Under the pieces are notes generated by a model. That model was not told the DNA's origin, searched no databases, and worked only from the letters and a program-made list of their open reading frames with translations. Of a DNA stretch of 64,000 nucleotides, positions 58,770-62,528 are shown in pieces; the first letter of the stretch is position 1; the number at the start of each line of letters is the position of its first letter. The position numbers and the translations under genes were made by a program. The DNA lies in assembly GCA_964470555.1 (NCBI GenBank), contig CAYYDG010000004.1:33053-97052 (forward strand), written 5' to 3'. The stretch comes from an uncultured Heliomicrobium sp. Its GTDB lineage: Bacteria > Acidobacteriota > Blastocatellia > RBC074.

Positions 58770-61700
58770 TTAGAAAACGATCTTCACCGCCAACTGAATG
58801 TTTCGGTTGCCGGACACGTAGCCGGGTTGGGCGTTGAATTCGCCGACGCCGCTGCCGAACTGCGCATTGCCTGGAGGACGAGCGCCGTTACGCACGTTGA
58901 GGATCGTTTGCGGAGAAGCGTTCTGGAACTGGCGATAATTCGACAGGAACTGCGACACGCCGTCCGTCACCGTAAAGCTGGTGTTCGGGAAGAAGGTCAA
59001 GCCGGAGTTGTAACCATCGAATTGCGCATGGTTGAAGAAGTTGAACGTTTCAAAGCGCAACTGAAGGAACCGTTTGCCATCGCCGCCGAGACTGAAGCTC
59101 TTGAAGAACGCCAGGTCGGTGACGTTGATGCCGGGGTTGCGCACGAACGAACGCGGTTGCGGACCGGGATTGATGTTCGGCATTTGCAGCGCCGTAAAAT
59201 CAAAGGCTCTGGCAAATTCCATTCTAGTTTGCGCATTGCCCACGATAATCGGGCGCGGGCCTTCCGTCCACGAACCCGTGATGTGCTGGTTGACGTTGAT
59301 GCCCTGAATGCCGAAGCCCAATTCGCGCGGGGTTCCCGACATAAATTGCGTGACACCGGTGATTTGCCATCCGTTGACCACGCCTTTGGCAAACCAGTTG
59401 TCCGATTTGAGCGACGGCAGATCCCACACGTAGTTGAAGTTGAGAATATGCTGACGGTCAAAGCTCAGTGTGCGGTAATCAACACAGCGAGAACAGACGA
59501 TGTTGATGAATTCGCCCTCGACAGCCGACGCCGTGCCCAACGCCTTCGACCAGGTGTAAGCTGCTCCAAACGTCACGCCGCGTCGGAAACGACGTTGCAT
59601 TGTGGCCTGCAGCGAATGGTAGTTGGACGAACCGCCGAAGGTCTTCATCTGCACCGTGCCGTAGCCCGGGAATGCGCGCAGGAAATCCGGTTGGAACGCG
59701 AAGCGTCCCGTGAATTTCAAGCCCGCATCGCGATAAAGCTGCGGCAGGTTCGGTTCTTCATCCGGCACGACACCGCCAGCGTAAAACGACGGGTCTTGCG
59801 CTGCTTTGGTAAACAGCGTGCCATACGGAATGGCGTTGATGTTGATGTCTTCAGGCAGGTGGCGCGAAAGCGTGCCTACGTAACCGACGCTGACGACTGT
59901 TGAAAAACCGACGTCTTGTTGCAATTGGAAGCTGAAGCTCTGGACGTTCGGGATGTAGCCTTCACGATCCACACCGCGAACGTTCACCGTTCCGAGTGCG
60001 ATCTGACCGGTGTTTTGTCCGACAGTCGCCAGATTGCCGAAGTTGAACACGGGGTTGACGAAGGTCGGCGGTTGTTCGACCGACGGGAAGATTACGTTGT
60101 TACCGGAAACGCGGTCGTAACCGATACGGTATCCGCCCCGGATGACGCTCTTCTGGTTACCGAACACGTCGAAGGCGAAGCCCAGCGCCGGTCCCCATTG
60201 AATGCCACGATTTCTGAAGCCGCCGCGTTCGATGCCCTGGTCGGGACGGATCATTCCGTTGAAGTTTTCGCCCGAACCCGGAACGACGCGGTTGATCAGG
60301 AACGAAGGCAACAGGACGGTCGGGTTGGCCGGGTCAATCGCACGCAATCTGTCAGCCGGAACCCCAGGTCCTTGACATGGGGTAGAGCCTGGCGCACATC
60401 CAGCCCGGTAGAGTCTGACGGTTTTGCTGCGGTCATAGCGCGAAGGATCGAAGAAAGCGCCCTGCAACCGTTGGTCGAATTGCGGCTGAATCCAATTCAT
60501 GCGCAGACCGTAATCCAGCGTCAAGCGGCGATTCACTTTCCAGTTGTCCTGCACGTACCATTCGACGTTGGTCGAACGGTATTGGCCCTGATAGATGCCG
60601 ACTGTCGGCTGGTTCAGCGTATTGAACGCACCCAACAAGGCGTCGGCGTAAGCGTGGCCGGTGTTGGCCGTGTTGGCCAGGTTGGCCGTGCCGCCGGGGT
60701 TGTTGAGCGGGTTGAAAACGATGCTCATCGAATTGCCAGCCGCCTGGTCTTTGCGGCTGCGCTGGATGTAAATGCCCGCTTTCATCGTATGCCCGCCCCA
60801 GACTTTGCTGACGTTGTCATAAAAGTCGAAGGTCGTGTTCGAATTCTTGTACGGGAACTAAGAATAACCGTTCGATCCCGCCCAGGTATGTCCGGCAATA
60901 TAGCCATTGCCGAAGTTGATGTTGATGAACTGCGAAGCCGGATATGGGAAAGGAGTCGCCCAGTTGAAACCGAATCCGCTGTAAGTCGCCGCATTCGGAT
61001 TGGTCGGGTCGAGCGTCAAGTTGTTCTGGCTGGCGCCGAACACGAATTCGTTGGTCAGCGTGGACGACAGCGTGGTCGTCAGATTGTAGGTTCCGTTCCA
61101 GGCTGGCGCTTGTTTGAAATCCAGCACGTCCAGCGGAATCTGGTTGCTTCCACCTGTCCAACCCAGTCCATAAGGCAGAAACTGCTGGTCGGCGTCACGA
61201 GTGTAGCGAACGAATGTGCGCGTATTTTCAGTGATGTTGGCATCTACGCGGATGCTGTATTCGCGGCGTGGGTACCCGGCGCTGGCTTGCGATTGATGAT
61301 TGAAGCCGAAATTGGCCGCCGAATTGAAATTGGCGACGTTGGCAAAGCTGCCGAATTTGCGCAAGATCGCCTGGCCGTTCGGGTTGATTCGATTGGCCGG
61401 GATGATGTTGTTCGGGAACGGCTGACCGGTCGTCGGATCATACAAAGTAATGGCGGAACCGTTGCCGCTGCGGGTTTGACTGAAATCGCCAGCAATTTCC
61501 GCAGCCGTCGGGACGCGCGATTGGCGCGCCGCGCCGGGCAGCAATTGTTCCTGCCATTCGCGCGAAACGAACCAGAACACTTTTTCGCGCAGGTTGTCAT
61601 TGCCCAATGGCCCGAAGATTTTCTTCGGCAACCACACCGGACCGCTCAGGTTGAAGCCCTGATAGTTGTAACGATACAGGTTGCGCTGACGGCCTTGCGC

Positions 61701-62528
61701 GTTGTTGAAAAAGCTGTTGGCGTTGAATTGTTCGTGACGGTGATAGTAATACCCCGTTCCATGAAAATCCTTGCCGCCGCCTTTGGTGATGACCTTGATG
61801 TCACCGCCCGCCGAACGTCCATATTCTGCCTGATAATTCGAAGTCAGAATTTTGAACTCGGCAATGTTGTCGAGCACCAATGCAATGTGCTGGGTTCCGT
61901 TCGATCCGGTGTCCACGTTCGTGGTTCCGTCAATCGTCAAGTTGTGCTGGTTGGCGCGGGTGCCGTTGATGTTGAAGGCGCTCAAACCGCCGGGGCCTGC
62001 AGTTTGCGCATTGACGAAACTGACCACGCCCGGCGTCAATTTGACCAGATCGAGGTAGTTGCGACCATTGAGCGCCAGGTTTTCCACCTGCTGGCTGCTG
62101 ATGACCTGTCCCTGTTCGCCGCTCTCGGTTTTGATGAGCTGTTGCGCGGCGTCGGCGGTGATTTCCACAGTGTTGGCCAGATCGCCGACTTCCAACGCAA
62201 TGACGCCTGTGGATTGGCGGTCGGCTACTGCCAGCACCAATCCGGTTTTGACAGCTTTCTTAAATCCCTGTGCTTCCACCGTTACGGTGTATGTTCCGGC
62301 TTGCAGCGTCGGGAAAGAAAAATTTCCATCAGAACTGGTTTTGGTCTCGATCTGTAAATTCTTGCTTGGATCACTGACCGTGACTTTCGCGCCAGCGATG
62401 GCGCTTCCGTTAGGGTCTTGCACGATTCCGCTCAAGCTGGAACTGGTTTGGCCGAAAGCAAAAACGGCCAACGCCAGTGTCAGCAAGACAGTCGGAAAAG
62501 CGCGCTTGACGAAAAGCTCAAAACGCAT
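58770..62528 (-). pseudogene. TonB-dependent receptor-like outer-membrane protein (carboxypeptidase-regulatory-like N-domain + plug + beta-barrel) interrupted by one in-frame TAG
   Basis: ORFs 60858..62540 and 58770..60785 share one frame and are separated only by a TAG (rc of 60858-60860). Readthrough gives a ~1252-aa protein: signal peptide, CarbopepD_reg domain, TonB-box-like TVEITAD, C-terminal ...LAVKIVF. GGAGG SD before the ATG at 62528. Confidence 0.6.

Follow-up and report, generated by a model that had tools for sequence, protein, structure and literature searches.

Do the two large open reading frames (ORFs) on the minus strand of a 64,000-nucleotide stretch of contig CAYYDG010000004.1 (the window), from an uncultured soil-type acidobacterium, encode two proteins, one protein with a recoded codon, or the two halves of an outer-membrane transporter gene that has only just been broken? 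In the ORF listing they span 60858..62540 and 58770..60785 and occupy the same frame. The upstream ORF encodes 560 amino acids (aa) if translation begins at a TTG codon, or 556 aa if it begins at the ATG at 62528; the downstream ORF encodes 671 aa from the ATG at 60785. When 58770-62540 is translated in one frame on the minus strand, there is exactly one internal stop, an amber codon at 60860-60858 in the context ...GGT TAT TCT TAG TTC CCG TAC AAG.... The initial annotation, which was made from the letters and the ORFs, had described the two ORFs as contiguous but for this TAG, and this description holds. The 24 codons that separate the TAG from the next ATG (60785), FPYKNSNTTFDFYDNVSKVWGGHT, were recovered as it had given them and read through cleanly. 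At its intact length, the gene comprises 1252 codons and a TAA stop codon. Its parts are as follows.

58770..62528, minus strand: whole disrupted gene of an Oar-type TonB-dependent transporter with a single interruption (from the ORFs, translation, Pfam and homologue coverage)
60858..60860, minus strand: premature amber codon TAG, codon 557, created by a single-nucleotide polymorphism (SNP) at 60860, CAG to TAG on the coding strand
60861..62528, minus strand: 5' fragment of 556 codons, which encodes the signal peptide, CarboxypepD_reg extension and plug as well as approximately the first third of the barrel
58770..60857, minus strand: 3' remainder of 695 codons and the stop codon, of which the annotated ORF covers 671 aa, starting at the ATG at 60785
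60888..61790, minus strand: barrel domain PF25183 (OMP_b-brl_4), profile positions 1-274, ahead of the stop (E 8e-49)
58968..60854, minus strand: barrel domain PF25183, profile positions 278-826, beyond the stop (E 9e-100)

The match to PF25183, a profile of 838 positions, thus resumes beyond the stop almost where it breaks off before it, as expected from the earlier remark that the 24 codons past the TAG continue a β-barrel-like sequence. Because a single barrel domain continues across the TAG, the two ORFs are not a chance juxtaposition. The classification of the product as an outer-membrane protein resembling TonB-dependent receptors is likewise borne out, by the PF07715 plug, the PF25183 barrel and the TonB-dependent transporter fold of a homologue model (see below). 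The adjective "giant" in the initial annotation was an overstatement, as about 1250 aa is the usual size in this subfamily: complete homologues are 1204-1293 aa long and cover 98-100% of the read-through product.

The two alleles and the ancestral codon

The codon that preceded the TAG can be read from homologues. We compared the read-through product with its best 120 homologues (identity, 58-92%; coverage of the product, mostly 98-100%). The column of the TAG contains Gln in 111 of them, Ala in six, Arg in two and Pro in one, and it lies directly ahead of a nearly invariant motif, FPYKNSNTTFD. In the DNA of other organisms, the codon at this site is CAG in 31, CAA in seven and GCG in two of 40 orthologous loci; TAG is confined to contigs with 100% identity to the window. 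The nearest orthologue, 92% identical and the first to be found, reads CAG. A 42-nucleotide (nt) exact pattern with N at the SNP retrieved one contig of another species from metagenome_contigs, which is approximately 88% identical and also reads CAG; the same pattern had no match in genome_contigs. The initial annotation had proposed to deduce the expected sense codon from orthologues, and the answer is CAG or CAA in 38 of the 40 loci. These comparisons identify CAG (Gln) as the ancestral codon, so that the coding strand has undergone a C-to-T transition.

Some of the orthologous loci belong to organisms with unexpected names. The loci L007, L008, L009, L025, L027 and L028 are from species-representative metagenome-assembled genomes (MAGs) and carry orthologues that are 81-96% identical. 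The titles of these MAGs, 'Heliomicrobium sp.' or 'Heliobacteriaceae', are odd, as the nearest named relatives of the contigs are Acidobacteriota.

An intact allele exists in what is otherwise the same genome. A predicted protein of 1252 aa, P0127, is the read-through product with Gln557 and falls into the same 90%-identity cluster as both fragments. It is encoded on NODE_5 of the European Nucleotide Archive (ENA) assembly ERZ1066125 (250,278 bp) and on NODE_6 of ERZ1066126 (247,669 bp), as well as on the Logan assemblies of ERR3440681 and ERR3440682. All four intact copies differ from the window gene by one nucleotide in 3759, at gene position 1669, which corresponds to window position 60860; on the plus strand this base is A in the window and G in the intact allele. 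We compared NODE_6 of ERZ1066126 with the window in four overlapping stretches (window 1-13054, 10913-32154, 30845-52233 and 48770-64000) and found it identical over 1-64000 except at 60860, or one base in 64,000. The TAG allele is present in the NCBI record, a contig of 247,684 bp from which the window presumably comes, and in the Logan assemblies of three runs, ERR3494953, ERR3494954 and ERR3494960, whose contigs are 100% identical to the window. Of the possibilities raised by the initial annotation, a recent nonsense mutation with strain-specific loss is thus the one that agrees with the data: CAG is ancestral, and an allele that differs solely at 60860 is found in four other assemblies.

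We consider it highly probable (roughly 0.9) that, in a sub-lineage of an uncultured acidobacterium resembling Blastocatellia, a very recent C-to-T change converted Gln557 (CAG) into an amber codon, with loss of function. As shown by the reading frame, translation should end at codon 557, where it would be terminated by release factor 1 (RF1). The product would be a protein of 556 residues that has the export signal, the CarboxypepD_reg extension, the plug and approximately seven of the 22 or so barrel strands. Missing from such a fragment would be the other two-thirds of the barrel, together with the C-terminal segment ending in Phe. A C-terminal segment of this kind is required for BAM-mediated insertion of outer-membrane proteins. 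The fragment would be unable to form a closed barrel in the outer membrane and would probably be degraded in the periplasm. The downstream ORF of 671 codons has neither a signal peptide nor a GGAGG-type ribosome-binding site that we could find (the sequence directly upstream of its ATG at 60785 is GGGGCGGGCATACG), so no functional product would be expected from it either. This makes the gene a pseudogene of very recent origin, segregating as a loss-of-function allele.

Several points weigh against this interpretation. The three runs with the TAG allele may share a DNA extract or library, and so may not be fully independent. The alleles were called from assembled contigs, and as these calls represent the assembly consensus, both alleles might coexist in each sample. 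In Escherichia coli, the near-cognate tRNA-Gln is a common misreader of UAG; low-level read-through of this kind could give trace amounts of full-length protein with the wild-type residue restored. Finally, the structural placement of the stop within the barrel derives from a homologue model of medium confidence, with a mean predicted local distance difference test (pLDDT) score of 67.6.

Alternatives to a recent nonsense mutation

One alternative is that the TAG is a sequencing or assembly artefact, and that the organism sampled has C as the true base and an intact gene. The two alleles are only one base apart, other assemblies of the same organism carry the intact one, and the TAG call is based on assembled contigs. 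Nevertheless, the TAG was assembled separately in three runs and is shared by the NCBI record, which makes a random sequencing error unlikely, as such an error would not become the consensus three times. A systematic error caused by the sequence context should also have affected ERR3440681 and ERR3440682, yet both read CAG, and the site contains neither a homopolymer nor a repeat. We therefore regard an artefact, which the initial annotation had left as an option, as very unlikely. Equally, its suggestion of phase variation finds no footing: the site, GGTTATTCT[T/C]AGTTCCCG, contains no homopolymer, short tandem repeat or invertible element, and the change is a substitution and not an indel, so we rejected a phase-variable switch.

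A further possibility is that the full-length protein is made because the TAG is read as a sense codon, whether by insertion of pyrrolysine, by a suppressor tRNA or through reassignment of the code. The resemblance to pyrrolysine or amber-suppression systems goes no further than the in-frame TAG that interrupts an open frame. Beyond the stop, the frame is open and conservation is complete, but a very young mutation would look the same. The window itself encodes an intact RF1, the release factor that reads UAG. Its gene, prfA (6336-7424, minus strand), scored 523.7 and 515.6 bits against NCBIfam equivalog cutoffs of 400 and 423, and the protein carries the PQT and GGQ motifs. It forms an operon with prmC (5475-7424, minus strand), and its own stop codon is a TAG located 3 nt ahead of the prmC ATG in the same frame; that prfA itself ends in TAG is internal evidence that UAG is a stop codon in this host. 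TAG also terminates approximately nine of about 50 window ORFs, a rough tally obtained with a self-trained codon-usage model that scored antisense ORFs as coding. The only other neighbouring ORFs in the same frame that are separated by a TAG proved to be distinct adjacent genes, namely an M16 peptidase gene and its neighbour at 12423-12425 and prfA and prmC at 6336-6338, and both pairs were rejected as recoding sites. No tRNA genes were found in the 64-kb window, nor were there pyl genes or a tRNA-CUA; the initial annotation had noted the lack of Pyl machinery in the window when it judged programmed recoding improbable. We concur with that judgement. Unlike in pyrrolysine recoding, the TAG is conserved in none of the 40 orthologous loci, RF1 is present, TAG is an ordinary stop codon, and an otherwise identical genome has CAG at the site; it would be most surprising if the codon were recoded here.

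It is just as hard to believe that the halves are translated separately into a two-piece transporter, or that the N-terminal fragment is functional alone. In favour of this idea, gene callers annotate two ORFs (in Logan assemblies, the 5' fragment is called as a protein of its own, with 556 aa), and an ATG is located 24 codons past the stop. However, not one of the 120 homologues or approximately 40 loci has a natural split or end at this point, which also disposes of the scenario, put forward earlier as a refutation, that the orthologues naturally end at the TAG. Starting translation at the downstream ATG would omit 24 conserved codons, including those for the nearly invariant FPYKNSNTTFD motif, and the new start has neither of the signals discussed above. 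Furthermore, the split is just one SNP old. The locus is a nonsense pseudogene or loss-of-function polymorphism of the ordinary kind, and no new mechanism is needed to explain it.

Domains, signals and neighbouring sequences

Apart from the barrel, we assigned the following features to the gene and its flanks.

62451..62528, minus strand: putative Sec signal peptide MRFELFVKRAFPTVLLTLALAVFAFG, followed by Q (judged by eye)
62214..62438, minus strand: N-terminal extension CarboxypepD_reg (PF13620), residues 31-105 (70.3 bits; cutoff, 32.3)
62151..62171, minus strand: motif TVEITAD resembling a TonB box (by eye, against the description of Oar in PMC6434023), residues 120-126, in the interval between extension and plug
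61803..62108, minus strand: plug domain (PF07715), residues 141-242 (37.5 bits; gathering cutoff, 23.9)
62534..62538, minus strand: Shine-Dalgarno sequence GGAGG, 5 nt 5' of the ATG at 62528
62795..62824, minus strand: promoter-like TTGACA-18-GATAAT in the intergenic region between gatA and the transporter gene (consensus match only, 11/12)
58715..58745, minus strand: terminator-like hairpin with a 14-bp stem and a T run, 25 nt past the transporter stop codon (consensus match only)

By the features tested, the gene belongs to the Oar-type TonB-dependent transporters. Oar of Myxococcus xanthus is 300-400 aa longer than typical TonB-dependent transporters (PMC6434023), and it has the same elements in the same order: a signal peptide, CarboxypepD_reg (PF13620), a plug (PF07715) and an over-long barrel (PMC6434023). 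The likeness is one of domain order; the barrel in the window is PF25183 (OMP_b-brl_4), whereas PF00593 is cited for Oar (PMC6434023). The window copy also differs from Oar in being interrupted by a stop and in having no adjoining Ton genes in the window, where we recognised neither ton nor exb genes next to the transporter. The protein ends in ...AVKIVF, with a terminal Phe. NCBIfam gave no informative family for the 5' or the 3' fragment, and no PDB entry was matched by the sequence of the intact protein at E <= 0.001. A literature search for Acidobacteria with TonB-dependent and carboxypeptidase regulatory-like proteins found no papers, nor did one for the accessions of the runs and assemblies.

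Structural information was obtained from the AlphaFold model of P0061, a homologue that is 70% identical to the window protein. The model is only moderately reliable (for its mean pLDDT, see above) and is not that of the window protein itself. When it was compared with the PDB using Foldseek, all 50 matches listed were TonB-dependent transporters, with E values down to 6e-23 and target-normalised template-modelling (TM) scores of 0.6-0.7; the best were YddB and the ferredoxin importer FusA. Approximately 22-23 long strands can be counted in this moderately reliable model. The Gln homologous to Gln557 directly precedes the strand formed by residues 485-501, with about seven long strands on its N-terminal side and about 15 on its C-terminal side.

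With its own promoter-like site and terminator-like hairpin, the gene looks monocistronic. The same two elements, the hairpin being a strong one, imply that little polarity is to be expected on the downstream genes for tetratricopeptide repeat (TPR) proteins. These genes are part of the region 54856-58699, which encodes in order a CarboxypepD_reg+TPR protein, a TPR protein and a convergent FG-GAP/ASPIC-UnbV protein; gatC-gatA are upstream of the transporter gene. The gene order around the transporter is common to the window and the 92%-identical orthologous locus L003 (6017-9810). A search of Rfam at gathering thresholds gave no match in the window, hence no known regulatory RNA, such as a riboswitch that would hint at the substrate, marks the leader of approximately 270 nt or the amber site.

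Opposite the transporter gene, the plus strand has two long ORFs, 58500-59903 (467 aa) and 59916-62357 (813 aa). These are antisense shadow ORFs that exist because the sense gene has one TTA, no CTA and one TCA in 1252 codons; all homology is on the minus strand, and we rejected the shadow ORFs as genes. The self-trained codon-usage model mentioned above scored them as coding. In another part of the window, inside a gene-free gap (13781-15309), there is an array at 14118-15024 of about five copies of a unit of approximately 180 nt, spaced 165-204 nt apart. Two of the copies are 96-97% identical, and the units share two cores, GGACACGGGGGTCGGATTTAGTCGG with complementary arms on both flanks and GAACGGGGCACA. 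The array looks like structured repeat or RNA elements; it gave no Rfam match above noise and no call by TRF.

Selection or drift, and what the allele means

Why is the TAG allele there at all? Drift or hitch-hiking is the default explanation. Instead, the same mutation may have reached consensus through an advantage of losing the receptor, such as escape from a phage or bacteriocin docking on this transporter or relief from the cost of a large transporter that is not used. This possibility, which would refine the nonsense-mutation interpretation and not replace it, seems to us doubtful but worth considering. TonB-dependent transporters are classic receptors of phages and colicins. The nonsense SNP is the sole difference in 64,000 bp between the sample batches, and we computed that a random substitution in the window is nonsense with a probability of only about 0.03. 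There are also apparently independent lesions in the orthologues of other MAGs. At 4339-4341 of L011 (JAEUQO010000211.1), an invariant Trp codon, TGG, has become TAG, and at approximately 3267 of L006 (CADECP010000016.1, MAG RBC074), an additional T (GGATTC-T-AAGAAA) shifts the frame at about codon 90. A further orthologue, L043, contains several frameshifts that are suspected sequencing errors.

Set against an adaptive loss are the facts that there was a single event, that the finding was picked for its stop codon, and that a gene of 3.8 kb is a large mutational target. The L006 and L011 lesions could be assembly errors, and a proportion of approximately 3/40 disrupted copies is within the usual rates of pseudogenes or errors in MAGs. 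No phage, bacteriocin or sample metadata is tied to the locus, and drift, bottlenecks or hitch-hiking account for the pattern equally well. The more specific proposal that the TAG allele swept between the batches (CAG in ERR3440681/2, TAG in ERR3494953/4/60) under attack by a phage or protein toxin using the transporter is, in our estimation, rather unlikely. If it were true, the orthologue lesions (Trp to amber in L011, frameshift in L006) would represent recurrent selection for loss, and the locus would provide a rare clue from nature to a receptor of phages or bacteriocins in Acidobacteriota. A known case of this type is a nonsense mutation of Klebsiella fhuA that gives phage resistance (PMC10783003). 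The window gene resembles such fhuA-type mutants in that a one-base nonsense change in a TonB-dependent transporter gene creates a loss-of-function allele coexisting with an intact one (PMC10783003). It differs in that the phage is the known selective agent and the phenotype was tested for fhuA, whereas here the host is uncultured and the allele is known from sequence alone.

For annotation, it follows that the locus should be described as one pseudogene with an internal stop, neither as two proteins nor as evidence of a variant genetic code. For the biology of the organism, it is a clean and well-controlled case of microevolution within a population of an uncultured acidobacterium, in which the one base that differs in 64 kb inactivates an outer-membrane transporter. 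It is a commonplace pseudogenisation unless the metadata of the samples reveal a directional move from CAG to TAG, which would make the locus a candidate for the receptor of an acidobacterial phage or bacteriocin.

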